Shown here: positions 1 through 30,317 of the stretch, in pieces
How the letters are laid out: every line of letters begins with the position of its first letter
Position numbering within the stretch: position 1 is the stretch's first letter
Assembly: GCA_008636045.1 (NCBI GenBank)
Contig: SNRW01000067.1
Coordinates: forward strand, 1-32,702
Source of the DNA: Streblomastix strix
Lineage: Eukaryota
Direction of reading: 5' to 3'
DNA: 32,702 bases
Program-made: the position numbers and the translations under genes
The notes under the pieces: generated by a model
Databases searched by the model: none
Seen by the model: the letters and a program-made list of their open reading frames with translations, nothing else
Told to the model about the DNA's origin: nothing

Positions 1-721
1 ATAATGATGATTATGATGATGCTATCTTTGAACAAGACGAAATAATATAATACAGAAAAGCAAATTTGTATCTATTTTGCATAAACATTAATACGAAATA
101 TTTAGTGGTATATCCTTTAATAGATAAATCAGCTGCATAAGTAGTTGGAAAATTGTAAAAATTAATTATAAATTGTTACGTAAATTATTTCGGGAGTGGT
201 GGAGAGAAAGGATTTAATGGTTCTTAATTTGCTTTATTTTGTTCAAGAAATAAAATTAATGGTTATTTCACTGATTCAAAGTTCAATAATCATAATAAAG
301 TTGTTGATTCAGTTATTCGTACAATAAGGAATGAATTTAGTTATAAATTTAATTAATTTTCAACAAATTAGTAAATACAAATAATTGTAGATATTTGCAA
401 TAAAACAATGCATCTTGCATTTCAAAATAAATATAGTCCATTTTAAGTTCAATTATCAATAGATTTCAAAAAATATACGTTCATAAATAAAGAAATTAGA
501 GCGATAATTGGTGAGATAAAAATTAGAGAGAATTCTTTCAATTTAAGCAAGAAATATAATTTTAATACATCTTGATATCTAAAAAACATAATAAAAATTT
601 ATGAAATAAAGAAAAAATTTCAATTAATTAGCGATGTTCATTAGATATGTGAATGGTAATGTTTTATGCAGATTATTGAATTATTCATATAAAATAAATC
701 TAATTAAAATAACTTCATATA
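1..721 (+). pseudogene. Degenerate Polinton-type rve integrase, 5' part, truncated by the window edge and split by the 722-19274 insertion
   Basis: TAR=Gln translation gives YLFCININTKYLVVYPL (~69), HNKVVDSVIRTIRN (~291-332) and FNQLAMFIRYVNGNVLCRLL (619-678). These are collinear with the integrase at 8094-9296. Frameshifts are present. Confidence 0.8.
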
Positions 722-1082
722 ACTACTAATTTTAGAGGATATTTGCATCTTTTCTAAAAAGCATAAGCAAATCTTACAAAATAACAGTATCAAAAATCCT
801 CACATTTAAAAATATAAATAGTTATAATATCAATCTTAAAATCTACGAATTTGCAAAATCTTCAAGGACCAACTGGTCGATGCAATAATCGAAAAATCAA
901 CGCAAAAGCACTATTTTAAAGTTAAATTTCAATAAAAAACTAACTTTCTTTGCTCTTAAAAAAATGTGTACTTTAATCAATTTTGTAATACCTTTTAATG
1001 AACAAAGGGTAAATGGTGGTAATAATCGAAGATTATTAGCCCCTTTAAGATATTGATGCAGATAACGAATAAAAATAATCAA
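722..1082 (+). repeat. Left terminal inverted repeat
   Basis: ACTACTAATTTTAGAGGATATTTGCATC... is the reverse complement of 18916-19274. About 5 mismatches in the outer ~215 bp and clearly more in the inner ~145 bp. Confidence 0.96.
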
Positions 1083-1159
1083 AATCTTACAAAATATTAT
1101 TAATTGATTATTTATCTTTAGATAAGTAAATTTTTTTTCATTTTTTTATTTTTATTATA

Positions 1160-4100
1160 AATAGCATTAACCAAATCATTACTATATTCTATATTGAGAG
1201 TATTTAGTTTCTTTACAAGTGAAACTGTTAAATAACTCAAGACTAGAGTGACCTAATTATTGAACGAATTAGGATATCCTAGATACAGATACATTGATAT
1301 ATATTCAATGATGGTGAAAGTTTGTATATTCCCATTAGCAGGCTTTTGTCTTTAAGAGCTAATTGACAAGCATTATGTTTCTCATAGGAAGTAACTATTC
1401 TATCAATAATTTGATTTGAATAATTGCTTCTGGCTATCATATACTTGATTCATATAATAAAGCAAAGTAGTACCAAATCAAATACAGTAGAAAACGGTTA
1501 ATTCGTAGTTGCTCCTTCATCGATTTTCGACATACGAATTACAGTTAATTCGTATCTTCCAATAAAAATTTTAGAAAATTTAAAAATTTTTAAAAAAAAT
1601 TTAAATTTTTACTTCTATTTTATTAAAAAATCATACGAATTAACCGTAGTACGAATTAACCGTAATCTACTGTAATACTTGAAGCTAAAAAATTAATAAG
1701 AGATTCGATAATCTAACGAAGAAGTAATACGATTCATCCATTAACGAATATAAAGAATTTGATATAGTAGAAGAATTAAATAAATTCATTATTTTGAAGA
1801 AGATTAACGTTAACATATTCAATTATGATCAAGATAAAAATTCTATTATTTGAGAGAAAAATAATTGTACTTTAAGATCAAGAATATAAACCTTGATAAT
1901 GACATATAGGAATAAGAATAAATAGAAGAAATACTCTCTATATTTATCATTCTACTAGTTTCGTCCACAAACGACAATTAATACTTTTATCATGTATTCT
2001 ATATAACTAATACAGACTGTTTAACAGGATCAAAATTTTGCCCATACTGTTATTAATAGTCATTTGACCTTAAGGATGATCATTTCAAAAGAAGCAATGA
2101 AAATCATGCTAGTTAATGCAAAATTAATAACGGTAAATAATTAAGAAAGTAAAACTGGGTGAGTAACCGTTCCCACATTGTCCTCATATTTAAAGCAATG
2201 AAACTTAAGCTCATATATTAGCCAAAACAAGAAGCAATAGTTTAAACCATAAGTCTACTTTATAACTTATGATTTTGAAACAGTTGAACGTAGCGTAAAT
2301 AACTATTATGGTAATTCAATTTCTTAAGGTATCTATTATAACTAATGGATATTAGAACTAGTTCAATTATCAGTTGCATCAACTATCAAACTAAAATGGA
2401 GAGAGTAATACTAAAACGATTAACGTAGTAAGAAGATTGATACTTCATTCGGTCCCTCTGCATTAAAGACCATCTATTTTGACATACGTTAAGGCGATGA
2501 TTTTATAACATAATGGATCGAGTAGATATTCGAAGAGGCTAAACAAGTTTCAATAGACAATAAGTATGATAATGACAGAGTTCCATATAAATATAACGTT
2601 TCAATTATTGGTTTCAATTCTAGTAGATTCGATTAAGTTTTATTCTCTAAATACTTGCATAATGATAAATGGATAATTTAAAGTTTCATTGGCAGTTATG
2701 GATGCAGTAAACAGATAGTAGTTGAACATAAACAAACACAGCAACTAATAAATTTTATTGACGCATTGAACAATACTTAGCCAACTGATTTAGACTCATT
2801 TACTGCGGACTTTGAGTCGGATACAAATTAATCAAAAGGGCTATTTCCATATAAAGGTGTATAATATGATAACTATAATTAAGAACTAATCAAATCATAA
2901 CCCTTCTCCATTAAAGTATTTGATTCAATATTGAAAAATAGGAAGATGACTAACGATGAATATTAATTATACTTCAATGATGCTAAAAACTACTCTACAC
3001 GATGGGACTACCTGTAACATTACAATGAATTAGACACATAGATAATGATATAACTGTTAGACAATCTCATTAATTGGTTCTATTAACATAAAGTTGATAT
3101 GCTTAGTTTCATGAGCCTAGCTACTAATGAAAATGCGATTAAATATGCTACAGCATATAAAGATTTCGATTTAAACATTAATTACCCTCAGTAATCAAAT
3201 AAATCAAAGCCTTTCATTCTATCTCAAATCTATTGGAATTCGAAAGTCATAGGATATAACATATTGGACAAATAAAAACATAGAAAGACAAATAATAATA
3301 TAACGATTAATAATTACAATTATTTTAAAGATCTATTCGAACGTTAATCTTGAGTTTTTTGTGGTGATAAATTTACAATGGATAATAAGCCTACTCTAGA
3401 TAGAATTAATAATAAACTACCTCATACTAAATCAAACTGCTAACCTTGTTGCATATATTGCAATCGTTACAAATCGGATAAGGATGAGAAAGTAACGAGG
3501 TTATTTATACAATTTCGTCGATACTATAATATTAATCGTCTTACCTAAACAATTGTAAATGATGAAGTATATTAACTCATTCGTCGTAATATTACTGGTG
3601 GACTATCTAATGTATTGCACCGTTATAATAGAGCAAATATTGATATTATTAAATGATATTATTATAATGAAAACACAAAAACTATAACAGTAATATATAT
3701 AAATCATACTATCTCTCATATCTGCGGAGTAGATTTTAACTCATTATATCCATCTTGTTTCTCATCATAAATTCATCTCTTTTACAAGTACACTAATGGT
3801 ATAATGTATATATGTGGATCAGTAACAGGAATTGTAAAAGATTAAGATAGTGCTAGAAAAGAAATACACTTGGATGATCGATGCACTGATCGAGGACAAC
3901 TATTCATTGCCTAACTGAGGGGACATATTGATGAAAAATACTTTAGTGATTTCGCTAATTGCCCCTCAATTATTTGTAACGTATCATATCAATCAAGCAA
4001 ATCAGTTATCGGGGAATATATGTATGACTAGATGTAATCAGCAGGAGTTAAAACTGATAGATAAGAAAGGAACTTAACTCAGTTATTATCTATTCATAAT

Positions 4101-5155
4101 TAATATATGACTTTTAATTCTTATTACTTATAGTTCTTAATTGATGTTTATCATTTTATAATCAATGATATTAAACAGTTAGTACTGTTTAATAATCATG
4201 CTAAATTTAATATTTTCGTTAACGAATTCATGAATAAATGTATTGAAGCTTTCAAGTAAAAGAATTGTGGATTAGATAAATTTTGTAAGATGATTTTAAA
4301 TGCTTCTTTTGGATCTGATAGTATGAATACTGGGAAATATAATAAAATCAAACTACTAATTAAAGAAAAGAATAAAGAAGTACATACTAAATATTTGTGT
4401 ATGAATGATCGTAAATTAGCGGATAACCTTTAAGCTTTTTAATTTAAACCAAAGAATTGTAAATGTAATACTTGTCTTCAGATAACCTATTTTACACTAG
4501 ACAATGCTACGTATTGGTATCCTAATTTCATGAATAATTTCATATAAAAATATTTGGATATGAATAAGCTTCATTTTGTCGAAAGGGATACTGATTCAAC
4601 TTATTAGGCAATTAGTGGATGATATGTAATTAAAGGTAATGACAATTAATAAGAATATGAAAATAACTTAAATTAAGGTTTCAAATACGTTAACAAGGGC
4701 CAGTAGTTCAATTTTATTTGTGCTAAATACTTCATTCCAACAATATATGTAGATAAATAAGACGAAAAGAAATTATTAGGTTTATCTATCGAAAATGAAG
4801 GAGATGAGATGTTTGCATTAGCTCCCAAAAATTACTATATTCATATATTTAAATGAAATTAGCTGACTGATGTTATCAAACTTAAAAGATTTAATCTTCA
4901 ATAGAACAATATAAACAAATAAGATGTGATTTATAATCTTGTTAATGGAAAAATAACACAACGAACTAATATTCGATTAGGTTAATAATCAGACTAACTG
5001 TAAGAAGAATAATTCTCAAAGTCCTGTTGTATGAATAAGTTATTATCAACTAAGAATGCGCAAACAGGCATACAAACTAAGATGATTGTATTGAAAAATA
5101 GTTAAAGTTGTTTACCATTTATCTATGAATTAACTGCTGATAGTTATTCAGACTG
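1160..5155 (+). pseudogene. Protein-primed family B DNA polymerase (pPolB), with vOTU-like N-terminal region and HNH insert; disrupted
   Basis: Motifs: NNCFW (~1420), YFYHVFYI (~1985), ExoI YDFET (2268), ExoII GFNSSRFD (~2610), KGLFPY, ExoIII HYNELD, RNITGG, VDFNSLYPS (3729), KMILNASFG (4287), DTDS (4587), APKNY. Disrupted by in-frame TGA at 3351, 3654, 4620 and 4854, a frameshift near 2225 and a MITE. Start and stop are approximate. Confidence 0.93.
1485..1672. mobile_element. 188-bp Tc1/mariner(pogo)-type MITE inserted in the pPolB gene
   Basis: TA duplication at 1483-1484 and 1673-1674. 23-bp TIRs CAGTAGAAAACGGTTAATTCGTA / TACGAATTAACCGTAATCTACTG (2 mismatches). Removal rejoins ...VVPNQI|ILEAKKL. 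Confidence 0.9.
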
Positions 5156-5306
5156 CAGATTTCTTTTTCTTCTATTTTTTTTAACCATCTTTTCTTTTAG
5201 GTTCTTTCTATGCTTCTATCTATGCAAGCATTTATTTTTCACTAATGTAATTCTTTTTAATTTTAACTTAATTTACTTTATCAGCTTTTGTTAATACATT
5301 ATTCAT
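5148..5306 (-). CDS. Small Lys-rich basic protein (52 aa), possible DNA-binding/core protein
   Basis: MNNVLTKADKVNQVKIKKNYISEKQMLAQIEAQKEPKRKDGQKKQKKKKSAV*. Starts in a TAAATG context. Confidence 0.5.
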
Positions 5307-5319
5307 TTATATATATGAT

Positions 5320-6280
5320 GGTGTTTTATCTCTAATTTTCAAAACTACTTTCTTCTGAGAGAACTGAATGTTATTAAGAGAATATAATTCCCAATCCATT
5401 GACCCAAGCTTATAATTAATAGCTCAATTCAAATCAATCATTTATTTCGATTATAATTCTTCAATTTATTTTTTTTTTCCTTTTATTTTGTTAACAATGA
5501 GTTTGATGTCATAGATAGACTTTAATTATATTATTGCTAATTATTCAATTATAATAGATTTCTTTAATAATTTGATTAAGATTTAATAATTGTTGGTATA
5601 TTAGTTAAATACATCATTACCAAATTATGTATATTCATATATAGTCTAAAATTCCTTATCTTTTTCATACACTTATTCTTTCTATTTTTTCTGTTCCTTC
5701 TTCGATAATCATTTATCTTTAAAAATTTTCATTCATAAGTTCATATTTATTCGTTAAATCATATGATGGATAACCTTATAACGCATTAAAATTATTTTAA
5801 GGTTATTAATCTTAATAATTATATATTCCTGAAGCAATTTACGCATTAACATTAGATATTTCAACTAACGAAGGATCACCTATTCCAACTAAATTATTAA
5901 TCATATTTTTTTACTCTTACTTATATATCCATCTAATCATATAATAGATTCTAAGCTCATGGACGCATTGATTACATATTTAATGGTTTCTATGATTATT
6001 TTTCATTTCTAAAATCTTCGAGAGTCTTATCCTGTTTATTGAAGAATAAAACTGTATCACTTAGCCCTTTCTATTAATTTAACGATTATTAATATGGATA
6101 ATTATCATTTATAAATTTATCAATCACATGTAATTAATAATTATTTTTATACCCATTAACAACTAATTTATTTAATATATTTGCATATATAACTTTATTA
6201 ATATATCCACTTGTAAAAAGAAGATTTAATCTATTAGTTATTTACAATAATACTTGTTTAGTAGCATTTGCTAGACTCAT
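5320..6280 (-). pseudogene. Hypothetical viral protein with in-frame TGA codons; 3' end approximate
   Basis: MSLANATKQVLLQITNRLNLLFTSGYINK... Its N-terminus is paralogous to the ORF starting at 7515. Confidence 0.55.
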
Positions 6281-6296
6281 TTTTAATTATCTAAAA

Positions 6297-6530
6297 ATGT
6301 ATGTATAAGAATATATGAGATATAGCTAATTCCTATCACCATTACTCTGTTTAGATACTAAATCAGATCCAATGATAGAACAATGATTCATTCTACATTA
6401 ATATAATAAACGATTGATGAAGGAATAATTAAAATATATTATAGAATAAGTATAAGTAAATAGCAAAGATGCATTACTGTTATTGATGATTATGTTGGAT
6501 GACAAAAGATTAAGAAAAATAAATTGTTCA
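6297..6530 (+). pseudogene. Degenerate paralogue of the small ORF at 7530-7760
   Basis: MYVQEYMRYSQFLSPLLCL...IEQ*FILHQYNKRL...LLLLMIMLDDKRLRKIN. It has one internal TGA and has lost the terminal stop. Confidence 0.6.
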
Positions 6531-6559
6531 ATTTCACTCTTATTTTTGATTATCAGAGC

Positions 6560-6971
6560 TTAAACCTATAGTTTTATATTTCTCTTTATCTTATTTTTGT
6601 TTTTAATACTTATATTTTTCAAGTATATTAATTATAGTGATTATATCTTTATCATCTAATTTTACCTTTTAAATTTATCGAATAGCTGTATGTTATAAAT
6701 CAGTGATTGTTTATCTAAATTGTTCAATGATTTAAAATTGTTTTTTTAATATATCTCATTATTCTCTTGATTTATTTTTAGTTTCTTCTATTGTACTATA
6801 TTTCTTAAGTCTTCCACATTTAACACCTTCTTTTCTTTCATATTTACATTTCGGTTTAATCAAAGTGTTTGTGTCAGTCTGCTCTGTAGGTTTTCCACAG
6901 GAAGTAGCTTTACTTTCGGTAACATTAATAGTCTCATTGTTATTCAATTTATTAATTGATTCAATTTTCAT
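6560..6971 (-). pseudogene. AT-hook-like basic protein, copy A; 3' end approximate
   Basis: KYERKEGVKCGRLKKY; paralogue of 7760-8116. In-frame TGA at 6758-6756. Confidence 0.55.
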
Positions 6972-7515
6972 TAGGTAAAAAAGTATATTTATACTTAATA
7001 TCTAATTTTTCTAGATCATTGCTTACCTTCTTAGCGAAATAAATAGGTATTTTAACTTACTATATATCTTTATACAGTTTCAATAATCTATAGATTATAT
7101 TACCATGCTAATACTTCTCGAATATTGCCAACTCCTTAAGTTACCTATGTTATATATTAAATTAATGAGACATCTTTTATAAATCAAGGTGAATCAGTAT
7201 GATATTACCTTTTGTTAATTTTGTTAGTTAATTCTACGACTATTTAACAGCATTTAATTTTCTCATTTAAGATCGTATATATTTATCTTCTAAATTTAAC
7301 TTAATTGGTTACTATGATGATGACTATTGTGGATACTTTTAAACTGTAAAGCTATTAATCATGAATAATTATTAATTACCTTAATAATTATCTTTGCTTA
7401 GTTGTTATTAAATCAAGTATCTAATATAATTATTAGTATACCCACTTAAACCAGCTTGACCTATTTTATTAACTATTTATTATAAAAATGGTTTAGAATC
7501 ATTTTTTAGGCTCAT
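6961..7515 (-). CDS. Chimeric 184-aa ORF: N-terminus of the MSL-family hypothetical protein fused in frame to the integrase C-terminal domain
   Basis: Open from ATG 7515 to TGA 6963-6961: MSLKNDSKPFLQQIVNKIG...PIKLN|LEDKYIRSQMRKL...GNIILIHLDLQK...IPIYFAKKVS...FLPNEN*. Confidence 0.65.
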
Positions 7516-7529
7516 TTAAATTAATTAAA

Positions 7530-7760
7530 ATGTAAGTACAAGAATATACGAGATATAGCTAATTCCTATCATCATTAGACTGTTTAGCTAGTAAATCAGA
7601 TCGAAGGATAGAACTATGTTTCATTCTACGTTAATATAATAAACGATTGAAGATGGAATAATTAAAATAGGTTATAAAATAAGCATAAGTAAACAGTTAA
7701 GAAGCATTATTATTATTGATGACTATGTTAGGTGACAAAAAATTAAGAAAAATAAATTGA
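7530..7760 (+). CDS. Small hypothetical protein (76 aa)
   Basis: MQVQEYTRYSQFLSSLDCLASKSDRRIELCFILRQYNKRLKMEQLKQVIKQAQVNSQEALLLLMTMLGDKKLRKIN*. Conserved with the paralogue at 6297. Confidence 0.65.
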
Positions 7761-8116
7761 ACAGTACTATCTTTTACTTTATTCTATGTCAGTGTCTTTT
7801 TAATCTTATACTTTTTTATTTATATTTATTCTTGTATATTAATTATATTGATTATATCTTATTCTTCTATCTTTACCTTTTAAATCTATCGAATAGCCGT
7901 ATGTTATAATTCGGTGATTGTTTATCTAAATTGTTTATTGATTTCATATTGTTTCTTTTTAAATACGTTTCATTATTATCTTGCATTATTTTTAGCTTCT
8001 TCTATTGTATTATATTTCTTAGGTCTACCACATTTAACACCTTCTTTTCTTTCATATTTACGTTTTGGAGTAATCACCTCATTGTTATTTTATTCATTTG
8101 TTGGTTCCATTTTCAT
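7760..8116 (-). CDS. AT-hook-like (KCGRPKKY) basic DNA-binding protein, copy B, with one in-frame TGA; 3' end approximate
   Basis: MKMEPTNEQ...PKRKYERKEGVKCGRPKKYNTIEEAKNNARQQ*NVFKKKQYEINKQFRQTITELQHTAIRQI. Overlaps the integrase stop. Confidence 0.6.
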
Positions 8117-9296
8117 TAGGTAAAAAAGTATATTTATATTTAATATCTAAATTTTCTAGATAACCACTTACCTTCTTAGCGAAATAAATAGGTATTTTAA
8201 CTTACTATATGTCTTTAGCATTTATGCCGACAGCTTTGCTGATATATAGTTTCAATAATCTACAGATTATATTGCCATGCTAATACTTCTCGAGTATTGC
8301 CAACTCATTAAACTATCTACGCTATTTTTTAAATTAATGAGACATCTTTTATAAATCAAGGTGAATCAGTATGATATTCCCCATCGTTAATTTTGTAAGT
8401 TAATTCTACTATTATTTAATATCATCTAATTTTCTCATTTAAGATCGTATATATTTTCCTTCCAAATCTTCATCCTTATTAATCTAAGTAGGACTATATT
8501 TTAATTCAAAAACATTATGAGGCTTATCATTATAGTATTTAACTATCTGTAACATTAACTTTGGATTAGCCATTTCTTGACCAATAAAAGCATCTCTAAT
8601 GGTTCGAATAACTCTGTTAACTACTCTATTTTTATTTGAGAATTTTGATTTACTCATGTAATACTATATATGAAGAGCTGATAAGAAATCTTATACCATT
8701 TTACTTCCAATAGCACTTTCACCATCAGACCTTATATTAGTTACATGTTACTATTTGATTAATTAAACTAGACACCTTAATATCTCTTCTTATGTTTTAT
8801 TCTTAATCTCATAAACATCAAAGATTTAGGTATTGATATTAATACAGAATAGGTAATCTTGTTTACCAACTCCGTTGGCGTTATAAATAATATCAACAAA
8901 TTCAATTTCTATTTCCCATGATCCTAATGTTTTAGAGAAGTAAGGTCTATAGAATTGCTTTAATGGTTTTGCCCTCCAATTTTATATTTTATTCTATTTA
9001 TCGAATAGATTTGAAATTTACTATTAATTCTCATGAACTAATTTAAGTCCATAAACTTTTTATTATCCTTTGGTGCTAGTTATGCGATATTAATTGAATT
9101 TATCTAGGTATTATTTATATAACTCAGCTACTGTTTTAACATTTCTTACTTTAGAGTCCAAACCTGATTCTGTGAATTATTTTTCTAAGTCATTTGAGAT
9201 AAAATTGGTTTTAAATTAACGATTCGAACTAGTTACAAAGTCTTTCAAACTCAACTTATTTATTTCATAAGCCTTATCATTAATAAATTTGTTCAT
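8094..9296 (-). CDS. Retroviral-like (rve) integrase of Polinton type, 400 aa
   Basis: Uninterrupted under TAR=Gln: RPYFSKTLGSWEIEIEF, YLFCININT, IRSDGESAI, NRVVNRVIRTIRDAF, VKYYNDKPH, then an SH3-like C-terminal region. No chromodomain seen. Confidence 0.9.
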
Positions 9297-9314
9297 TTAA
9301 TTACAAAAATAATT

Positions 9315-9440
9315 TCACTGATAAATCTTCGATTCGCAAACATATTTGATAGCAAAGTTGAATATCTATTTGAATAGATCATGCCAGTTTTTTACGAATG
9401 ATTCAAGTGCCATTATCATAGTCTAATTGAAGATTTCCAT
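9315..9440 (-). CDS. Tiny hypothetical protein (41 aa)
   Basis: MEIFNQTMIMALESFVKNWHDLFKQIFNFAIKYVCESKIYQ*. TAAATG start; fills the gap between its neighbours. Confidence 0.4.
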
Positions 9441-9455
9441 TTATATCACATTAAA

Positions 9456-10458
9456 TCATTGAATATATTACAACTCTAATAGTGAATTGTTATATATGTC
9501 CGTAAACTAATTAGGTATTCTTCTTCCGAAATTATCATACAATTGAAATACAAAGGATCTATTCATTCCCATTAATCCTGCTTGTGATAGCATATTTTAA
9601 CCCCAAAGAACAGGTGCTCCAATTAGATTCTATTTATAACACAAATTCGAAAACCTTACATTGATAATGGTTTACATTATTGATCCCTACTTTTGATTAT
9701 CAACACATATAACTAACATCTGGTGTATTCTAAAAAATTACCAATATAAGGGTAAAAGATAGATATATCCGATAATAATGATTATTAATTATATTTATTT
9801 TTATAGAATCAATCTTATAGTTCAATTATTTTTTCGTTAAAAGAAATTTTAACCAATTGATTAGCATTATTTTAGTTATTACCATCATATAAATCTAATC
9901 CACCTGTTAATTATATATATAAGTTGTTAGATAATACTACACTATCAATATACCAATTTTAATGTGGTTTAGAATTATATTCATTAATAAAAGATGTTAT
10001 ATATTGACCATATTAATTAAAAAGTTAAATATCAGTATATATATCCTTCCATTATTATACATTTAACGCAGGTAATGAACATATCAATCTAACGGGAAAT
10101 GTATTTATGCTATTACTAATTTATTACATTGATGCTGATTATACATTAATTGGTGTAGTATCCGTTTCAGTTAAATTTCCATTTGTTAATGTAATCTATT
10201 TTCTATAATTATATCTTTTATTAATGTTATATGGATAATCACTACCCCACCTTATAGAGGTTCTGTGGTTGATTAAAAGTTATTAGATGAGGGTTCACAT
10301 ATTTTTATTAGACTAAAACACCTACATGCTATAGATAAATAACGATCAAATATCCAATAGTTGTATAAGAAAGCGTCCAAACGTAAATTTGTATAGTTTA
10401 ATGCAGGGCTATATATATCTATCGCGTTATTAATATTTAAACTGTTTGTATTATTCAA
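9456..10458 (-). pseudogene. Putative minor capsid protein (penton), frameshifted
   Basis: C-terminus FVFQLYDNFGRRIPN...LLELQYIQ* resembles the I.L.D..G..I penton ending of Polintons. ~330 codons, beta-rich composition. The start appears mutated (TAATTG) and there are frameshifts. Confidence 0.6.
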
Positions 10459-10943
10459 TTAATTTTATAAGTTTCACTTCACATGTCTGATAATTGGAAA
10501 GAACGAAGTATTTGTTGCTGTTTCATTCTTACTTAACATCGATAGTAATTTATCATTGCAAGAAATGCATTTCTGTCTAAAGAAATTGTGACAACATAAC
10601 CGTAAGAAATTCTTATAAAATGCTTGCTCATATCTCTCGTAATCTATGAATGATTTATTTCAATAGTTTCAATTACAATCACCTTCATTTGACTTTTGTT
10701 CTGAATTATATGTTGATGAAGATGGATAAAACATTAAAATAGTTACAAATTAAGTATGTAAAAATCTAAATTTTAAATTTAAAATTGAATATATTTATTA
10801 AACTTTTAAACTTTTCTAAGAAATATTTTTTTAACCAACAGGCATTTATTCATTGATCATTGTAAAAACTTGGAGACAGTACAAGTGTTGAATTTTTCCA
10901 TTTAAATATTTCAAAATTGAACCATCTGAGATCATTAAAAATA

Positions 10944-11033
10944 ACTGTCTATTTTTTGAAAATTTAGAGTGGCAGCAAAAACGGCCCCAAAGTGGCTGCT
11001 GCCACTCAAAATCGTACTTAAAAAAATAGCAGG
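10944..11033. repeat. GC-rich imperfect palindrome flanked by a 9-bp direct repeat (possible miniature insertion or cis element)
   Basis: Perfect 11-bp stem GAGTGGCAGCA (10967-10977) / TGCTGCCACTC (10997-11007). Outer arms CTATTTTTT / AAAAAATAG. TTAAAAATA at 10935-10943 and 11034-11042. Confidence 0.6.
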
Positions 11034-11074
11034 TTAAAAATACTATTCTTGTGGATCAACGAACTCGTTGATTT

Positions 11075-11480
11075 CAAATTATTTCAAAGCATTAACCTAT
11101 GTGTTATACATATAAGACTATTTATTTGAATCTAGTGCATATATACTATTTATTATAGTATTCATCTTAATTCTAATTCGTGTAAGATACTCAATAGCAT
11201 CTAGTTTAAACGTTCCATTTGAATTCTTAACTTATTGATACAAATTTGGTGCTTTTAAATTATGTCTTAGTTCAATATAATCATCATCATTGAAGAAACA
11301 TAGATTTAAAGGTATATTGTTCATGCTGTTACTTTAAAATTATCTATATCCAGTAGGGGCTTAAGCTATCTATTCAACGTAATCATTTTCGCTATCATTG
11401 TTAATTATTTACGACTGTATTTAAGCTATTTGTTCAAAGCAAAAATAGACTTAGTGTAGATTGAAAGATTGAATATTCTC
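11075..11480 (-). CDS. Hypothetical viral protein (start unclear)
   Basis: Open frame ...APTGYRQFQSNSMNNIPLNLCFFNDDDYIELRHNLKAPNLY...HIGQCFEII* directly downstream of KilA-N. Confidence 0.4.
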
Positions 11481-12297
11481 AATAAATTGACGGTTCTTTA
11501 ACAGTATTTTTGATTGTTTCCATTATTTCATTTGTATTTTAATCATTTGGAATAGTAAATTTAAGGTTTTTCATTTTGATATTTCTATCGTTTAACTTCT
11601 CTTTAATTTCATAATTAGTTATATTAGCAATAGGTAAATTACCAGTGATTAGAGTAGACCTTTTAAATAAAGTTGGTTAATTCTTTAAACAACTTCTATG
11701 TAATCTATGAACTTTGTATTATTTTCCATCAATGTCTTCGATAATGAGTTCAATTGAGTAAACATAATCGTATTATCTATCTTATGGAACTAATCTTGGT
11801 TCCATATGTTATATTGTTTTACTATAGTCAGTGTTCTCACGTTAAAGTTGTTCGATTATTCTATCCTTATTATCATCAAACGTTAAATATGTTAATTACA
11901 TATTTTCGTTACTTAAATCTATTATCTAACTAACATTATGCAAGTATTTTATACTAGTTTTCATACAGATGAAATTGATTAGTTCTTTACATATATGCGT
12001 TCCTCTTACCTCATTATTATATTCATTTACTAGTTAATATTCTAGGGGGAGGGGTTGGCTCATTTTTGATCCAGCCCCTTCATAACTGATAAATTACTAC
12101 ATTTCTCTTTACATTGGTAATCTAGTTAAATTTTTCAATAATTTATTTGTAAAATCCTTTTCATTAATAAGTTGTACTAATTTGGTGGAATTAACGTATC
12201 CATCTTAATCTCTTATCATTATCTCAAATCCATTATATGTTCCGATAGTAAAGATTGCGTTATTGGATGAAATTATAGTTGCTACAAGTTGAGTCAT
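11479..12297 (-). CDS. KilA-N (APSES-like) DNA-binding domain protein, 272 aa
   Basis: GTYNGFEIMIRDQDGYVNSTKL...EVRGTHICKELINFICMKTSIKY, followed by a coiled coil. KilA-N genes are typical of metamonad Mavericks and large DNA viruses. Confidence 0.85.
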
Positions 12298-12381
12298 TTA
12301 TGAAAGTAATAAATACTGAAAAATATACAATCTAAATTTCAAATCATAGCTTTTAAATCATTAATCATTTCATCAATATAC

Positions 12382-12582
12382 TCATTTCTATTTTTCTCCA
12401 ACTTCATCCTTTAATTCCTTTTGCCAATGTAATTTTTAATGTATTCTTTATATTAAAATTTCATTATTTTACTTTGATATTTATCTTAATTATTCATGCT
12501 AATCAAGTAATGAAAATATCGTTTATAATTGTTAATAATGATTGTTAATTAATTTCTATTCTTCTGGTGTGATTTAAGGCAT
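12382..12582 (-). CDS. Small hypothetical coiled-coil protein
   Basis: MPQITPEEQKLINNHYQQLQTIFSLLDQHEQLRQ...; may extend to ~12340 via a frameshift. Confidence 0.4.
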
Positions 12583-12656
12583 TTTTATTAAGATAAAAAT
12601 AATAAATTCAATTTAATAAAGATTTAAAGTAAATTTAGTCTACTTTCTATTGTTAA

Positions 12657-12940
12657 TCAATCAATTATTTTTCTTCCTGTGTTATCTTTTTCAATTATAT
12701 CTTCTATTATATATTGTTTACATCAATTGGATAGATATACTGGTACTATCCGTATTACTTAAAAAACTTGTAGTACTTTGTTTTACCATTTTTAGATTCG
12801 GTTAATTAATAGAATTGTTTGTTGTATAATCTTAGATCATTAAACTTATACTCACCAATCTTATCAACAACCTTACCGTTAGTCATAATATTATACTGCA
12901 ATTAATGGAATTTTTATTTATCTTCTTATGAGTAACTCAT
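12657..12940 (-). CDS. Small hypothetical protein (~90 aa; may contain a frameshift)
   Basis: MSYSQEDKQKFHQLQYNIMTNGKVVDKIGEYKFNDLRLYNKQFY... Confidence 0.4.
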
Positions 12941-12978
12941 TTTAAATTAATGTTAAAAAAATTAAAAAATTATGTTTT

Positions 12979-13191
12979 TCACTATCTCGAACCATTAATG
13001 TATCGATCTACTCCAACGACTATTCGTTACCCTACTCTCATAGCTGCTCTTACACCTGGATGAATCATACTAACAGGTGCAGCTAATGAACCTATAACTT
13101 TATTCAATGTTGGAGCTACCCAACTTGCAGCCTTAGTTGTACCCCCTAATATTTTACTACCGAAATTCTTAAGACCTGACCAAAAACAAAT
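12979..13191 (-). CDS. Adenovirus protein VI-like amphipathic (membrane-penetration) peptide, ~70 aa; start codon apparently mutated
   Basis: xxFWSGLKNFGSKILGGTTKAASWVAPTLNKVIGSLAAPVSMIHPGVRAAMRVGQRIVVGVDRYINGSRQ*. Head-to-head with the capsid gene. Confidence 0.7.
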
Positions 13192-13250
13192 TTATTTTAT
13201 TAAAAAATAATTAAAGTTAACGTTTATGCTGTTTCCTTTTTATTATCTAA

Positions 13251-15215
13251 ATGTCATTTGCATCAAGCGATTATTTGAAACGATTAACTTCAGCGTAACA
13301 TTCGGATTACATTAATTCATAATCAAAATTCTAGGAAATAATGCAGACTCAAACTATTGTAGCATAATCATTTAGTACGTCTAAGTAAAAATTCTTTGAT
13401 TAACCATTAATTCAACTTACGAATGATGGTGCACATTGTACTGGAGCTCCACTTGCAGCAAGAGGTACTGCCACATGTTCATGTGTTAAAACTTGTAAAA
13501 TCAGTTGGTAAATATACACACCAGCAAAAACATTAACGATAAAGGTTAATTTAGTGCAATCTAATGGAGCTGAAGGTTAAGTTTAAAATCGATAAATATC
13601 TAATTATAATGTTATTGTTACAGGATTATGGAATTCACCTTAAACAGTAATAATGGAATCAGGAGAAGAAGAAACGAAGTAGGATTATAACTTTGACGAA
13701 TATATTAGATTTTGGTTAGGTTTCTCAACAGCTTGTGGACCATCTAATTAGATTGTTATATATAAGGATTCATAGAAATTACGGGATATTTCAATATATG
13801 CAAGAGAATAAGCAATAATCTCATCAAACTCATTGACCGATTAATTTACCTCTAATTCTGTAACAGTTTCACCACTTGAAAGTATGGTATAAAATAAACG
13901 ACATTGTGGGATATTTATTGATATACAAGTATTTAAGATTAGAGTTGCAAGTTCTTATTATTATTTGATTCCTTATGACATAATATTTAATGGAGTAATG
14001 GATTTGAACTAATTGAATACTATCTTTAACAACTTTCCTGTATTAACTAAAAATTATGCGTCATTGTGTATTTAATTATGGATGTAAGATTTCTTATAAG
14101 ATTTGAAGATTGTTTGGTTAAATAAATATAACCCAGTAGATAATTCATATATAGCCTATACAATGATTCCACCGGCGATACAGGATATAATTTACTTGAA
14201 AAATAGAGCTGCAGCAGTGGTTTAGGATAAATACAATATTCGATTAGTTAATATAGAAGGTAAACCTAATACAACTACTATACCTACAGCTACTATTAGT
14301 TAAATTAAAATTGCTAAATTTAATGAATTGAACATAAATAATCTATATTTTAATATGGAGAATGAAGGTGTAATTGTTGATATGATTCATAATCAAAGAC
14401 TCGTTAATTTTCCAACATAAGTTCAACATACTTAATCATCTAATTATCCTGCAAGTAATATTGGTGATGGAGGTGGATTTATTTAAACAATAATGTAATT
14501 TGCTAACATCAAGTCTATGTTTGTTACTTTCGCTATGCCATAATATCCTATATGGATCTTCGTTGCTCCGTTCAAAAATATTGATTTGATTATATATTAA
14601 CATCATGTTATTCCAAGTGCTTATCTAGCTTTATCATAAGATGTCAGCGGTTAAATGTTTGATTGTTTCGTTGATTAAGATGTAGTTAATGCATCATCCG
14701 ATTTATATCATTCATTAGTGATTGAAAACCAATATATAGATGATAAGAATTATCCTTATGGAATTGAATATCTTGAAATAGGGGGATAACTTAGACCTGT
14801 ATCAAACCTATTTTATGAAACAACATTATATAATGGTTCTAATGCAATAAAAGTATTCTATCCTAATAAGTTTATGCTAGCATGGAAATTTGCTACTGAA
14901 GATTCATTTATGAGGGGATATAACTTATCTAAGTTAGGAGTAAGAACTAATATATAAGTATAAATTGGATTTAAATCTATAGATAATATATGTTCTGATG
15001 AACCTATAAGATCTGCTCTAATTGATTAAATTGATTTAAAATACTTTAAATCAACTAGATATTATCCAAATGTTAAGAATTCCAAATTTACACCATTAAC
15101 TTATTATCTATGCGATGGAATTGTTCGAATAATGTTTGATGATAACCCAGATCTATAAGTACTATCGTTAGAGGTTATTGGTGAAATAGGAGGTAGTGCT
15201 ATTCGTAGTGGATGA
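13251..15215 (+). CDS. Putative double jelly-roll major capsid protein, 654 aa
   Basis: Fully open 655-codon frame under TAR=Gln (checked codon by codon), beta-rich (IRFWLGFSTACGP, IFNNFPVLTKNYASL, YYLCDGIVRIMFD). It is the longest intact ORF and lies upstream of the packaging ATPase. The fold is inferred from size and context. Confidence 0.8.
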
Positions 15216-15241
15216 AAACTATTTATTTTTATTTAATTTAA

Positions 15242-15673
15242 ATGAGTCAAGACCAATAGAAAGTATTCAAAGCATTAACGACAAAGATAATCAAAGACAA
15301 TTTTAAACAAAAATAAATGAATTTTGTATCATTATTCTTATCAATTTTTAATTATATATTCTACGGAGCTAACTTCTTATTATCTATTATTAGTTTATCG
15401 ATAACAGATCAAACGTAAGAATTAATCAACGTATTTAAAAAACTATGGAGTTATTTTGATGTGATAGTGATTCCAATTAGTATTATAATCTATATTGTTA
15501 AATTCATCTATCATCGTAAAATGAACACAATAAAAAAGGACTAACATTGCAGTTAATATACGATTGATGAGTTATATTAGTTAGTATAATTAGCGATTGA
15601 AAATAAAGATCTTAAATTAGCTTAGCATTATCGATACTTAATTACATTAAAATTAATTAATTAACACAATTGA
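15242..15673 (+). CDS. Membrane protein with two predicted transmembrane helices, 143 aa
   Basis: Hydrophobic segments FVSLFLSIFNYIFYGANFLLSIISLSI and YFDVIVIPISIIIYIVKFIY. Intact; TAAATG start. Confidence 0.7.
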
Positions 15674-15674
15674 A

Positions 15675-16706
15675 ATGAGTTCATCTGAAATAAAGCAAAT
15701 ATAGTTTGATACTTATAATATGCTAGACGAATATAAAACAAAACCACTAACGCCTAAATCTATCTTCCTTATTAACGCAAACCATTATAATGTAGGAGCT
15801 GTTGGAAGTGGTAAAACAACATTAATGAGTAAACTAATTATATTGTATAAACATATAATTAACCTCCAAATATTATACTTCTCAAACTTGCTACAGGATG
15901 AAAGTATGTCATTAAATATGAATGATAAAAATATAACAATTAATAGCATAATTTATAAAGATGCAATGATGTTCTTACCTCAATTCGATGAGATTTAATA
16001 CAAGGTTAAAGAGATATATGCCTATCTGAAATTAAAATAAATGAAAATTATATATAGTAGTGATTATATTAAATAACGCAAATAGAATATATATGTTAGT
16101 AATGAATTAAAGAAGGTTGAAACGAATTAATAATTTACAACTAGAGTGAAAGAGTAATTTAAAATCTATTGGATTGAAACAATTAATGAATATAACTAGC
16201 CTACAAAATTAATATAACAAACTATCCCCTCGTTAGCTTAAAATGTTAGTTATGAGAATAGATTGAAAATAATTGATACATAAGAAATAGACGAAGATGG
16301 AGTATCAATAATTAAACCACTAAAATTACTAATACTTTTAAATGCACGATTATTATCTACATTAATGATCATTGATGATATTGGTTCTAATACAGATATA
16401 TAAAGATATACTTAATAGTTATCTCGTACAATAACTCATCACGTTAGTTATAGTAGACATTCTAATAATACACTATTCTTTGTTACTTAATGGATGTAAT
16501 ACTTGTTTAAAACTGCTCAAATATTATGTCATGTGACAGTCCTTAGGGCTAACCTTGGAAAAAGTGGATTTAAATAGATTTATAATGAGAATAATATAAA
16601 CATATTATCGGAGTAAGAGCTAATGATATTATATAATACATCGAATAAGTATGATTTTATTGCTATTAATAAGTGGTTATAACGATTTGAAATTATTAGA
16701 TAATGA
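15675..16706 (+). CDS. A32/FtsK-HerA family DNA packaging ATPase, 343 aa
   Basis: Walker A GAVGSGKT, Walker B LMIIDD, A32 signature SRHSNNTLFFVTQ. Intact under TAR=Gln. Confidence 0.92.
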
Positions 16707-16755
16707 TATAACTGAAGGATATGGTAAATAAATTTGCTATTATTTTTGGATATAA

Positions 16756-16896
16756 ATGATTTGGGAAATAATTAGTAGTGTCTCGTTAATGATTATAACT
16801 TGCAACAACTTATTAAATTGTGTCAAAATAATATATCAAATAAAAATAGATAATGAAGAGAATAGTGATGAAGTAAGAAATTCAATTTATTCCTGA
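16756..16896 (+). CDS. Tiny protein with hydrophobic N-terminus (46 aa)
   Basis: MIWEIISSVSLMIITCNNLLNCVKIIYQIKIDNEENSDEVRNSIYS*; TAAATG start. Confidence 0.45.
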   Translation: MIWEIISSVSLMIITCNNLLNCVKIIYQIKIDNEENSDEVRNSIYS

Positions 16897-16902
16897 ACTA
16901 TA

Positions 16903-17659
16903 TCAAAATGATTAATTATTAATAGCATATGAATCGCAAACCTAAACACAAAAATCATCAGGTAAATGAATCTATCACATTGTATTAATTATAACATTAC
17001 CATTACGATAAATATGGCAATCAATAGGTATTGCTCCATTCCAACAAATCGGATAACCAATATTTTTTAACTCCAAACAATACAGCACTTAAAGGTATGT
17101 TTCGTGATGTTCCTGTGAATTTAGGTTTTATAGCATTATTAATAATAGAAAACATAGTATATCCTGATTCCGTTAATGTATTCGGATCAGAGTGAATTAT
17201 TTACAGTGATATGTATAATCTACTATTTTATGTTGTTAATGTACTCCATATTCGTTGCTCATACATTCCATAAGAAATTGATGAATAATGTGTATTTTCA
17301 ATTAGTTCATAATCTAATTAATCTTTTTCAATAGAATCTTCATTTGCTAGAAGTAATTAGTTTGCTGTACCATTAGTTTTTATAAATTAATCGGCAATAA
17401 TTGATTGTGTGAATTATTTGTTTTCTGTTATTGTTTGATCTGTATCTAATGTCATTAAATTAGATAAATCAACATCCTTAGTTTTCATGTATTAGCTAAA
17501 GTAAGTAAACAGTTTAATTATCTCTGTTTCAATGAAAGAGATTAATTATTTTTATAGCTTCTCTAATTACTTTACTTCTTCTTATTTTTATTATATCTCT
17601 TGCGGTTATTTTTGTATATTCATTAACTCCTCCTCAACTGGTTCGATTAATGTTTCCAT
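16903..17659 (-). pseudogene. Putative virion fibre / receptor-binding protein, degenerate at the 3' end
   Basis: N-terminal coiled coil, then VDLSNLMTLDTDQTITENKQF...FIKTNGTANQLLLAN (phage tail-fibre-like motifs), then a beta-rich head. Frameshift near 17065 and an in-frame TGA. Confidence 0.6.
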
Positions 17660-17685
17660 TTGATTTAAAAATAAATAGTAAAAAT

Positions 17686-18350
17686 TCACTTATTTCTATT
17701 TTTGGTTTTGGTTCGTCTGACTGTCTAACGAAGTCATTTTTGACTCGATATAGCTTCTCAACTTAGTTCTAAAGAACATTATCAATTACACTAATATTTA
17801 CATTTTTAATTAATGCATCAATTACTTTAACAAGGTCTTTCTTCTTATATTTCTTTGTCATTCATGAATGCGATTACGTTAGTGGTTCCTCTAATACTAT
17901 TTCAATATCATTATCGTATTCTTTTGTGATTAGTGACCAAAATTTAATGAAATTATCACTACTCAATATGAAGTCATCTCCTCGTTTTCTTGATGTAGTT
18001 ACTTTCCAGATACAATCGATAACAAATTTAAGAACCTCTAGATTTGAATGTGCTAAGAAAATATTTTTAACTACTTCCTCTGGTTCAACTTAAGCAGTCT
18101 CTCGTTCTGCTTCTTTGTATTTATTTTTATTGTAATGCTTCTTAGGTCAAACTTCGAGCTATTGTTCATTAATTAACACTTCTTACTTATTTTCTTATTA
18201 TGGAATTGATTAGTTTCTCAAGGCTTAATCAAACGATTATAATCTAGGTTTATCTTCTTCCGATAACTCTTTCTTCATAACTTTAATTTATTTTTTGTGA
18301 TTTACTCATACGGAGCTAATTCCTCTCGATACTTGAAATTATTTAAATCA
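17686..18350 (-). pseudogene. Degenerate hypothetical viral protein
   Basis: Charged reading frames (...KEAERETAQVEPEEVVKNIFLAHSNLEVLKFVIDCIWK...KKYKKKDLVKVIDALI...) broken by TGA codons and frameshifts. Confidence 0.4.
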
Positions 18351-18373
18351 ATTAAAAATTTAATAATTGATAA

Positions 18374-18919
18374 ATGGATAAATCACAAGCCTTAAGAAAA
18401 ATGAAAGAAAATGGAACTACATTCAAAAGCTTTAATGGAGGTTATCTAATGTAAATAGGTATGTATATTAAAATATTTGAAGATGGTTAGAAGATCCCTA
18501 AAGTATTAACATAAGCTTAATAGAATAAGTTGTTATAGATGCCGATAATAAAAGAATAAGACGATTGATTAGTATATCAAGATGATGAAGATGAAAGTGA
18601 AGAAGAATAAGAAACATAAGTTCTAACAGTTAAAAAGAAGGTTAAAGCAATATAAAACTAACCCACTATTAAATATACTACTCTTTAAATAGATCTTGAA
18701 GAGCTAATTAAATTGCGAACTGAAAATTAATTCATCAAGTAATAACATATAGAATCGTAAAAGCAAATTAATAAATATAAGAATAAACTTAAATCAATGA
18801 AATAAGTTAAAAAACCTACAATTAAAGAATTAGTTAAAGAAGAACCTATCGAATAAGATTCACAACCAATTTAATAACAATTTAGTGAAAGATACCTTAA
18901 TGAGTTCGAGTTATATTGA
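18374..18919 (+). pseudogene. Hypothetical acidic/coiled-coil protein (~181 aa) with one in-frame TGA
   Basis: MDKSQALRKMKENGTTFKSFNGGY...DDEDESEEE...YLNEFELY*. The stop abuts the inner edge of the right TIR. Confidence 0.55.
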
Positions 18920-19274
18920 TTATTTTTAATCATTATCTGCATCGTTATCCTAAATGTGCTAATAATATTCGATTATTACCACTATTTACCCTCTGTTCCT
19001 TAAAAAGTATTACAAAATCGATTAAATTAAGCATTTTTTTAAGAGCAACGAAAGTTATTTTTATTGAAATTTAACTTTAAAATAGTGCTTTTGCGTTGAT
19101 TTTTCGATTATTGCATCGACCAGTTGGTCCTTGAAGATATTGCAAATTCGTAGATTTTAAGATTGATATTATAACTATTTATATCTTTAAATGTGAGGAT
19201 TTTTGGTACTGTTATTTTGTAAGATTTGCTTATGCTTTTTAGAAAAGATGCAAATATCCTCTGTAATTAGTAGT
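18916..19274 (-). repeat. Right terminal inverted repeat
   Basis: Ends ...GATGCAAATATCCTCTGTAATTAGTAGT; reverse complement of 722-1082. Confidence 0.96.
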
Positions 19275-19351
19275 CATATTATTGCAAATATATTTCTGAA
19301 AATAAAGTATCTAATTAAAAATATTATGCAACAGAGTTTTTATTTAAGTGA
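19275..19351 (+). pseudogene. 3' end of the interrupted integrase whose 5' part is 1-721
   Basis: Joining through the TSD gives ...LIKITS|YYCKYISENKVSNQKYYATEFLFK* (TGA 19349-19351), which aligns with VKIPIYFAKKVSGYLENLDIKYKYTFL of the 8094-9296 integrase. Confidence 0.75.
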
Positions 19352-20147
19352 AAAAATAAAAAATTATTTATTTATTTATTAATTTTTTATCGAATAATAA
19401 ATAGCAGCAATTGAGTATATCAACGAGATAATCAACGAAGCGACATAAACTGAATCATCGCAAAATGAATCAACCGCAGGCGAAATCTAAGAGATAATAT
19501 CTTCAACAAAACAAGGATGTTTCAAAAGTTAATGATATGCAATTATTGATAATCAAAAATTTTAAAAAAATGATGTTTATTAATGAATCTACAATTGTTC
19601 ATCATTGTCAATTTCATCAAACAAATCATTACAATAATCGGCCAATTAGTCGATGACATTTATTCAATTTCATCAATAAAATTTGATTCGACTGATTCTA
19701 TTAATCATCTTATGCTAACCAAATAAGGTGATACATATCGCTTAAATCATTGATTTGAGCTATAAGTTGTGAGAGAAAAAGAAGCCTGAGCAAACTCGGC
19801 AAACGTGCATCAAAAGTCGCACTGCATAAAAGAATCACATTAATTGTTGAAACAGTGCATATTAATATCTATTTCCATTGCTTAATTTATTGTTTATCTA
19901 TTATTTTACTTCCATAAATTTATTCACGAACAATATTCCATCAATTGTTTTGCAACAATAAAATTATTCGAATATAATAATCAATACAAATAACGATATT
20001 CAACAATTTAAAATCAATAATTTACACAATTTCAGGATTTTGACAATTCTATTCAGTAATCATATATCATCTGTATGTTAGAACCATATGGTTTTCTGGA
20101 CCAAACAATTGAGGTGCTTTTGTCATGTTAGCGCAGACTTATTTTTC

Positions 20148-20477
20148 TCTCACTTCTAAGCAGTGATCTTCTGCAATACGAAGAATAAAGTAGATTGGCT
20201 CACAGATAAAATGAGGAAATCTGGATTTACTGTAGTATCTATGCATGATGGTATGAAATAGAAAAAACGTAATACAATTATGGACAAGTTTAGACGTGGA
20301 GAAGCTAGAGCATTGATCATAACAGATATCTGGGCTAGATAAATAGATGTAAGTCATGTATCTTTTATAGTTAACTATGATATTTCAGAGAATAGAGAAT
20401 TATATATTTATAGAATTTGGAGACTTGGAAGATATGGAAGAAAAGGTGTTGCAATCTCATTTGAGAAATGCCAATGA
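20148..20477 (+). pseudogene. EIF4A3: eIF4A-III (DEAD-box helicase) C-terminal domain fragment
   Basis: [19 protein letters not shown]...TDIWARQIDV...[27 protein letters not shown] and NRELYI are eIF4A3-like. Motif VI is degenerate and no N-terminal domain lies nearby. Confidence 0.85.
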
Positions 20478-29600: not shown

Positions 29601-30317
29601 ATAAAATGTATATATTGGGAAATTATATATAATAATATAAGTAATAAAAAATATAATAATATATTTAATAAATATAATAATTAATAAATATAATAATAAT
29701 TTCATTACCCAAATATATTCACTCCAGGAACATAGCCATTATTCTTCAACAATTAAATAACATCATGAAAGTATGCTCTGTCATTTAAAAAATAATAATT
29801 ATGAATAAAATTAATTTGATATGAGAGTATATTAATAAAAAATATAAATAAATAAAATTTAATAATTAAATATGAGAATATATTATTAAAATGTATAAAT
29901 AATTAAACAAACCTATAATCGTGAGGTAATGGGACATCATATGTTAGATATTCCTGAGATCGTAGTCCATAGTCATCTTATGGGGAATATACCTAATATT
30001 AATTTGATAGGCATTCGTATTACCATGTCTCGGGATTCAATCTAAATAAGTAAAATAATAAATAATAAATTAATTGGTAAATACTACACTGAATTCTTTA
30101 TACTTCCCAAAACCATATTTTATCATTTTTTGTTTTGCATTAGTAAGTCGAGGCCAGAATAATTCTGATTTGTTAGTTTTCTTGTTCTATGCATATAAAA
30201 TACTTCCTAATTTAAATTACAGATATTATATAATTTTTAAAATTAATATAGAAATAAAAAACGAATACCAGCAAGACCAGGAATCAGCAACACAGCATTA
30301 TGTATTGTTGAATTCAT
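26656..30317 (-). CDS. LCAT-family acyltransferase / phospholipase A with large low-complexity insertion
   Basis: Exonic motifs AVLLIPGLAG, YFHDVIQLLKNNGYVPG, FPYDWRQ, ITHSLGG (Ser), GDGTVP (Asp) and VGHLAVL (His). Multiple GT-AG introns. ATG 30317, TGA 26658-26656. Confidence 0.9.

Follow-up and report, generated by a model that had tools for sequence, protein, structure and literature searches.

A probable dead Maverick-Polinton, full-length and encoding a double jelly-roll capsid, in whose lineage TAA and TAG stand for glutamine

Introduction

Polintons are the presumed ancestors of adenoviruses. Maverick-Polintons are told apart from Polinton-like viruses in the narrow sense by a protein-primed DNA polymerase B (pPolB) and an integrase of the retroviral type. 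We describe here an element at positions 722–19274 (18,553 bp) of a 32,702-nucleotide stretch of DNA, contig SNRW01000067.1 of the Streblomastix strix assembly GCA_008636045.1, hereafter the window. Polintons range from 13 to 25 kb, with terminal inverted repeats (TIRs) of 100–1500 bp and target-site duplications (TSDs) of 5–8 bp (Jeong et al., 10.1101/2023.08.22.554363). S. strix is reported to read TAA and TAG as glutamine (Gln), and its endogenous viral elements use the translation table of the host (Bellas et al. 2023, PMC10120064). The same survey lists 820 table-6 hits to major capsid proteins (MCPs) from S. strix, all in one cluster, obtained from Trichomonas vaginalis seeds with frameshift-tolerant DIAMOND (Tables S1/S4). 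Membrane-active core proteins ("Macc") are a named class in adintoviruses and adomaviruses (10.1101/2024.03.25.586562, 10.1101/341131).

The element is very probably a Maverick-Polinton that is full-length but dead, has a double jelly-roll (DJR) capsid and belongs to a lineage in which TAA and TAG encode Gln, and its host is likely the oxymonad S. strix of the termite gut. A first-pass annotation, made from the letters of the window, had called it a complete Polinton-like virus. Its Polinton identity and its ends stood, and the narrower class and the completeness of its content did not.

Results

Both termini of the 18.5-kb element are retained. Self-comparison of the sequence delimited a left TIR (722–1085, + strand, starting ACTACTAAT) and a right TIR (18913–19274, − strand, final letters ATTAGTAGT); 717–938 and 19058–19279 are 97% alike, 936–1085 and 18913–19062 are 87% alike, and the two TIRs differ at 25 of 364 aligned columns. 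The 364-bp TIRs and the length of the element lie within the Polinton ranges given above, as does the 6-bp TSD, which reads CATATA at 716–721 and CATATT at 19275–19280 (5 of 6 bases matching). The termini read ACTACT...AGTAGT (722–727 and 19269–19274), which we take to be the reverse of the AGTAGT...ACTACT ends of many Polintons. One contig of run X1 connects 714 directly to 19274, with six letters common to both, and two contigs extend past 720 into the letters of the right flank. Because these contigs carry the target uninterrupted, the boundaries and the TSD are right, as first annotated, and the insertion is nested. The sequence hit by the insertion, at 69–715 (+ strand), is the decayed gene for an integrase of another, related element, 34–35% identical to the integrase of the present one (E 3e-17 and 1e-15). 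The runs X1–X3 represent one sample, possibly the window's own source, so that they do not count as independent and no copy number follows from their summed depth. The target itself (69–715 and 19275–19350) is covered by many contigs, and a TIR-bounded unit with other flanks was not seen among the contig loose ends listed.

The capsid gene (13251–15215, + strand) encodes a 654-amino-acid DJR protein and is open but eroded. Its structure was modeled from a 90-row alignment, with a score of 78 in the predicted local distance difference test (pLDDT) and a predicted template-modeling score of 0.83; this deeper alignment superseded an earlier model of pLDDT 51 with weak DJR matches. Foldseek returned 203 matches in the PDB at E ≤ 0.001, the best at 7e-11, and all listed rows were viral DJR capsids or hexons. 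VIA-align superimposed the model on a capsid chain of PBCV-1 with Z 17.9 and a root-mean-square deviation of 4.2 over 353 aligned residues, the top 15 rows all being of the DJR type. The DJR fold of the MCP, a Maverick-Polinton hallmark on which the first-pass annotation had staked its call, was thus found. The capsid profile gave no match to PDB sequences. The capsid has 177 homologues, and 120 of 120 among the matches listed are named S. strix; some members of the family carry the automatic name "Major capsid protein" in UniRef. Searching 1.84 billion proteins with a profile yielded 211 matches, 150 of them listed, from which we chose 10 long distant relatives (19–28% identity, no informative name, contigs of up to 21.8 kb) that fall outside the well-supported S. 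strix clade of the capsid tree. Viral contigs scanned with back-translated patterns, which may miss Gln encoded by TAA or TAG, gave no relatives, and neither did the first metagenome scan. In the S. strix gene model P0093, an HNH_3 endonuclease domain (E 3e-8) is joined to the present type of capsid.

Translation table 6 (code 6) opens frames of 400, 654, 343 and 272 amino acids where the first-pass annotation had placed them, and the longest open stretch under table 11 is 106 codons. Among 100 order-2 Markov shuffles read in code 6, the longest frame reached at least 272 codons in 97, at least 343 in 58, at least 400 in 20 and at least 654 in none. Therefore only the capsid frame beats chance by length, and we rejected open-frame length as evidence. 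The placement of the Gln codons is more telling. TAA or TAG accounts for 37 of the 46 Gln codons of the capsid gene (9 are CAA or CAG), and Gln is the commonest residue at 25 of these 37 positions among 75 homologues of 47–78% identity, with many columns at 95–100% Gln. Conversely, 24 of the 30 columns with a Gln consensus are TAA or TAG in this copy. At 34 capsid TAA/TAG columns compared in the 10 distant relatives, Gln was the most enriched residue (3.1-fold); the code of these relatives was not checked individually, and the capsid of the environmental relative L001 is open in table 11. That most conserved Gln columns are TAA or TAG places the evolution of the lineage under the code of its host. 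Judged at the level of the family, it is adapted to TAA/TAG as Gln, as had been proposed, and some TAA and TAG codons of the present copy are products of decay. The Gln content of the S. strix proteins is 6.4% for pPolB, against 3.2% in other relatives, and 6.6% against 4.8% for the capsids, a possible compositional drift from the reassigned AT-rich codons.

The polymerase is a pPolB pseudogene of the Trichomonas-type group (about 1281–5150, + strand, the start possibly slightly upstream), recognized from homologues and motifs. Its 81 homologues, 24 of them from S. strix, include T. vaginalis proteins at 41% identity and proteins bearing PF03175, as expected of a Maverick-Polinton pPolB, and in a quick tree it forms its own clade beside the T. 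vaginalis-type enzymes. The exonuclease and polymerase motifs are still readable. The gene is broken by frameshifts near 1836 and at 2150–2220 and by in-frame TGA codons at 3351, 3654, 4620 and 4854. These TGAs face a Cys column (54 of 54 other relatives have Cys there), a Lys/His/Arg column, an Asp/Asn column and a variable column; TGA read-through was rejected because no single meaning fits all four. Because the element has a pPolB and, likely, an integrase of the retroviral type, we class it with the Maverick-Polintons and not with the narrowly defined Polinton-like viruses.

Decay is seen elsewhere in this copy as well. The capsid is changed at 28 of 220 conserved columns, whereas 12 of 15 other copies are changed at 2–9 and the remaining three at 14, 16 and 30. 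Within pPolB lies a TA-flanked insertion (1485–1672, about 190 bp) resembling a miniature inverted-repeat transposable element (MITE), with 25-nucleotide arms, TA included, that are 92% complementary, ends that read CAGTAG...CTACTG and internal repeats of TACGAATTAACCGT; by its ends we take it to be Tc1/mariner-like. To judge from these sequence features, the element keeps its full outline, but its content is dead.

Two further features of the sequence were found. An HNH/endonuclease VII-like domain is inserted in pPolB (3180–3620, + strand; PHROG 1035, E 4e-10; Pfam HNH in relatives). It is also present in T. vaginalis relatives, in contrast to an account, in the consulted part of its source, of HNH as unique to the pPolB2 of oomycetes and nematodes (10.1101/2023.08.22.554363). 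A diverged tandem duplicate (6187–7295, − strand) copies 7424–8467, comprising the 3' end of the integrase gene and small basic open reading frames (ORFs), and is 79–83% alike.

Beside the capsid gene, a 69-codon gene (12979–13191, − strand) encodes a conserved amphipathic peptide of the pattern MG-F-WSGLKNFGS, which is like adenovirus pVI by motif only and whose start codon is lost in this copy. All 11 homologues come from S. strix. Among 25 proteins with the motif, the present copy included, 20 begin with Met-Gly and 23 contain WSGLKNFGS. Consecutive locus tags, on contigs of equal length, place the gene next to a capsid model in four other copies, and in two gene models the peptide is fused ahead of a capsid. 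In L001, a 68-amino-acid ORF with the same KNFGS core comes directly after the capsid gene and before that of the ATPase, and its best match in the window is the peptide gene (E 0.001). KNFGS is invariant from S. strix to L001, and the stretch shared with pVI is the most conserved part of the family. The N-terminal amphipathic helix, a feature also of pVI, has a hydrophobic moment above that of 96–99% of 2000 shuffles in three of three members. Judged by this conservation, the peptide is a real gene family, and our best guess, by analogy, is that its role would be membrane-active. The pVI-like peptide of the first-pass annotation therefore holds as a conserved family, its gene here lacking a start codon and its match to pVI not being significant.

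The remaining genes of the element vary in how well they are assigned. A likely retroviral-type (rve) integrase (8094–9296, − strand) is an open frame of 400 amino acids, 35% identical to its paralogue in the left flank, and its catalytic positions are possibly substituted. A P-loop ATPase of 343 amino acids (15675–16706, + strand), likely the packaging ATPase, has Walker A and B motifs and is 24% identical to the ATPase that adjoins the capsid in L001 (E 6e-19); its family matches are to generic AAA only, and the A32/FtsK class is not among the matches. A KilA-N domain protein of 272 amino acids (11479–12297, − strand) matches Pfam PF04383 at E 1e-9. The ATPase and KilA-N calls of the first-pass annotation were thereby confirmed, and its integrase call was upheld as to the frame, the rve match falling below the Pfam cutoff. 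A coding region broken in several frames (9456–11546, − strand) is a candidate gene for the penton (minor capsid), a single jelly-roll protein in Maverick-Polintons; over 93 amino acids it is 41% identical (E 5e-18) to an S. strix gene model. A candidate fiber gene (16909–17818, − strand), frameshifted near 17066, matches the S. strix model P0325 in two frames. These candidates may show a penton-like C-terminal motif and a phage-fiber-like motif. A 153-amino-acid ORF (15212–15673, + strand), whose one or two hydrophobic stretches peak at 2.2 and 1.6 on the Kyte-Doolittle scale, is a candidate membrane protein, and a possible ORF of 110 amino acids (12608–12940, − strand) has no family. Of the "unusually full virion module" first proposed, the MCP, the ATPase and the small peptide stand, whereas the penton, fiber and membrane-protein candidates are without a family match and the first two are broken.

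The GC content of the window is about 25% throughout. The right flank holds interrupted genes of eukaryotic type, identified by Pfam as LCAT-like, Vps52 and a helicase fragment; together with the S. strix names of the homologues, they point to S. strix as the likely host. In the LCAT/phospholipase-like host gene (26835–29705, − strand), the introns are stop-free under code 6, which produces a spurious frame of 956 amino acids. The helicase fragment is an isolated DEAD-box C-terminal portion (20088–20477; Pfam Helicase_C, E 7.5e-23) whose motif VI looks damaged; it is possibly a pseudogene.

Discussion

A number of results weigh against our reading of the element as a recoded Maverick-Polinton with a pVI-like peptide. 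The best Pfam match of the integrase, rve, is below threshold (E 0.0013; 19.4 bits, cutoff 32.6), and the integrase has no PDB match. The penton, fiber and membrane-protein candidates match no Pfam or PHROG family, the Pfam scan having covered chosen frames of the window. A maturation protease of the adenain-like type was not found: the sole match of a six-frame motif scan lies inside the capsid gene, and the family scans covered chosen frames. Since table 6 was already used to translate the S. strix homologues, their Gln columns show the conservation of a sense codon and not its meaning; the distant relatives were therefore also used for the code test. At the TAA/TAG columns of pPolB, compared in 57 other relatives, Trp (3.7-fold) is enriched along with Gln (3.2-fold) and Glu (2.7-fold), and part of the TAA/TAG load is therefore decay and not adaptation. 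Searches of the PDB with the peptide returned adenovirus pre-protein VI in 5 of 10 rows at E 0.49–1.9 and in 6 of 9 at E 0.34–0.66, all of them non-significant, and the Atlas ranks cecropin (0.78) over pVI (0.75), both being leads only.

An alternative is that a virus with the standard code integrated and that AT-biased decay later produced its TAA and TAG codons, which a host reading them as Gln would tolerate. This would fit the TAA/TAG codons that the capsid has at three near-invariant columns (two Tyr and one Ser, 3 of 37) and that pPolB has where Trp and Tyr are conserved, as well as the doubled Gln content of the S. strix pPolBs. Random decay, however, would miss the columns at which Gln is the commonest residue in the homologues, 25 of the 37, and we regard this explanation as very unlikely. 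Equally improbable, in our estimate, is a copy that is intact or inducible, its breaks being assembly errors or TGA read-through. The open capsid, integrase, ATPase and KilA-N frames and the readable polymerase motifs would agree with such a copy, but the MITE, the 28 changed capsid columns, the 25 differences between the TIRs and the lost start codon are atypical of sequencing errors, and the four TGAs share no single meaning. We thus retain the reading of a dead Maverick-Polinton from a lineage adapted to the host code.

Two narrower questions concern the peptide and the capsid. The chances are balanced that the peptide has no kinship with adenovirus pVI, being an amphipathic helix that arose by convergence or else a cement or DNA-binding core protein. 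Its match to pVI spans only 12–18 residues at E values above 0.3, the family (12 members) gave no match to the adenovirus protein VI profile (MCPVI, PF02993) in Pfam, and the L001 peptide alone found no pVI and a weak cecropin match. On the other side, nine residues (WSGLKNFGS) are identical to two pVI chains, they fall in the most conserved part of the family, and the gene adjoins that of the capsid. The odds that the peptide is homologous to pVI, as far as its residues tell, are about even at best, and we do not class it as a member. As for the capsid, it could be wholly known: a member of the Metamonada cluster MMPC_40 already in print, and one of the 820 hits that Bellas et al. (2023) obtained in S. 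strix. That all 820 hits fall in one cluster and were found with a frameshift-tolerant search speaks for this, and the Atlas clusters nearest the capsid, one from Preaxostyla (547 amino acids; 0.97; template-modeling scores 0.58/0.67) and one from Parabasalia (583 amino acids; 0.96), make it at least a neighbor of the Metamonada group. Yet the four S. strix representatives in the Bellas tables consulted are absent among the 120 listed of 177 homologues (57 are further, unlisted ones), and no T. vaginalis protein is among these 120, though T. vaginalis polymerases match pPolB. Of five short motifs of a Bellas representative, four occur in none of 272 proteins compared and the fifth in one, and seven motifs of the present capsid family and the peptide have no occurrence in the part of the supplement searched, which excludes the S. 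strix rows of Table S5. The capsid family has no DUF4106 match in Pfam scans run with no positive control, and its length, about 650 amino acids, differs from about 535–590; the comparison with the Bellas sequences covered motifs, identifiers, lengths and the Pfam scans. On balance a wholly known capsid is unlikely, and a separate, unreported capsid lineage, probably as a neighbor of the Metamonada group, is the likelier account.

By analogy with the family, active members would carry a linear genome copied by the protein-primed polymerase from its TIR ends, would integrate through the integrase with a 6-bp TSD, and would package their DNA into capsids by the ATPase. In the virion, the 69-amino-acid peptide would likely be internal and, like adenovirus pVI, would serve to breach membranes during entry. 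The present copy went into another such element, within its integrase gene, and has decayed since.

That a virus in this host is recoded is already in print (PMC10120064), so that the call itself is unsurprising, and the novelty claimed by the first-pass annotation shifts to the capsid lineage and the peptide, which are probably unreported. The published survey probably left at least one further large capsid family of S. strix uncounted, which is described here with an anatomy defined by its boundaries and with a measured test of code adaptation. Searches of the literature, most subscription papers lying outside them, found Streblomastix joined with Polintons only in the consulted part of that survey, and found no pVI-like peptide in metamonad elements in the consulted parts of the papers. 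A bolder reading, possible but doubtful, is that of an undescribed Polinton lineage with a capsid of about 650 amino acids, occurring in an oxymonad with TAA/TAG as Gln and elsewhere under the standard code, and carrying next to the capsid gene a free-standing, 69-amino-acid homologue of the membrane-lytic helix of pVI. If so, adenoviruses would have inherited their entry peptide from a Polinton protein, of which this would be a minimal form that needs no protease. A short conserved peptide with the pVI lytic motif beside a capsid gene, which can be synthesized and assayed, is a cheap handle on the origin of adenoviral membrane penetration.

The S. strix elements of Bellas et al. share with the present one the likely host, TAA/TAG as Gln, a DJR capsid and many copies. 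Their capsids measure about 550–560 amino acids and are about 32% identical to those of T. vaginalis, whereas the present capsid measures about 650 and shows no sequence link to them in our searches; no element anatomy, TIR, TSD or peptide for S. strix was found in the consulted text (PMC10120064). With the T. vaginalis Mavericks, of the pPolB2 class, the present element has in common a pPolB (41% identical), a likely integrase, an ATPase and TIRs with a TSD (10.1101/2023.08.22.554363, consulted part). The capsid lineage, the table-6 code, the separate pPolB clade of the quick tree and the lack of a protease among our finds set it apart from them. Adenovirus pVI and the "Macc" proteins, in the consulted parts of their sources, share with the present peptide the small amphipathic form beside a major capsid gene, and WSGLKNFGS is identical to two pVI chains. 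In pVI (217–266 amino acids) the motif lies behind a propeptide, whereas here the protein has 69 amino acids with the motif N-terminal after Met-Gly, and the match is not significant. The environmental relatives L001 and L002 complete the comparison. L001 holds, in 1564–5808, the capsid gene, the peptide, the ATPase and a 222-amino-acid ORF of no family; L002 has the same capsid type at 584–2332, and both have a similar Cys-rich ORF of 243–273 amino acids upstream. The L001 capsid is 23% identical to ours and has the same peptide and ATPase adjoining it, whereas L001 and L002 differ from the present element in their standard code, GC content of 32–34% and gene order and orientation.

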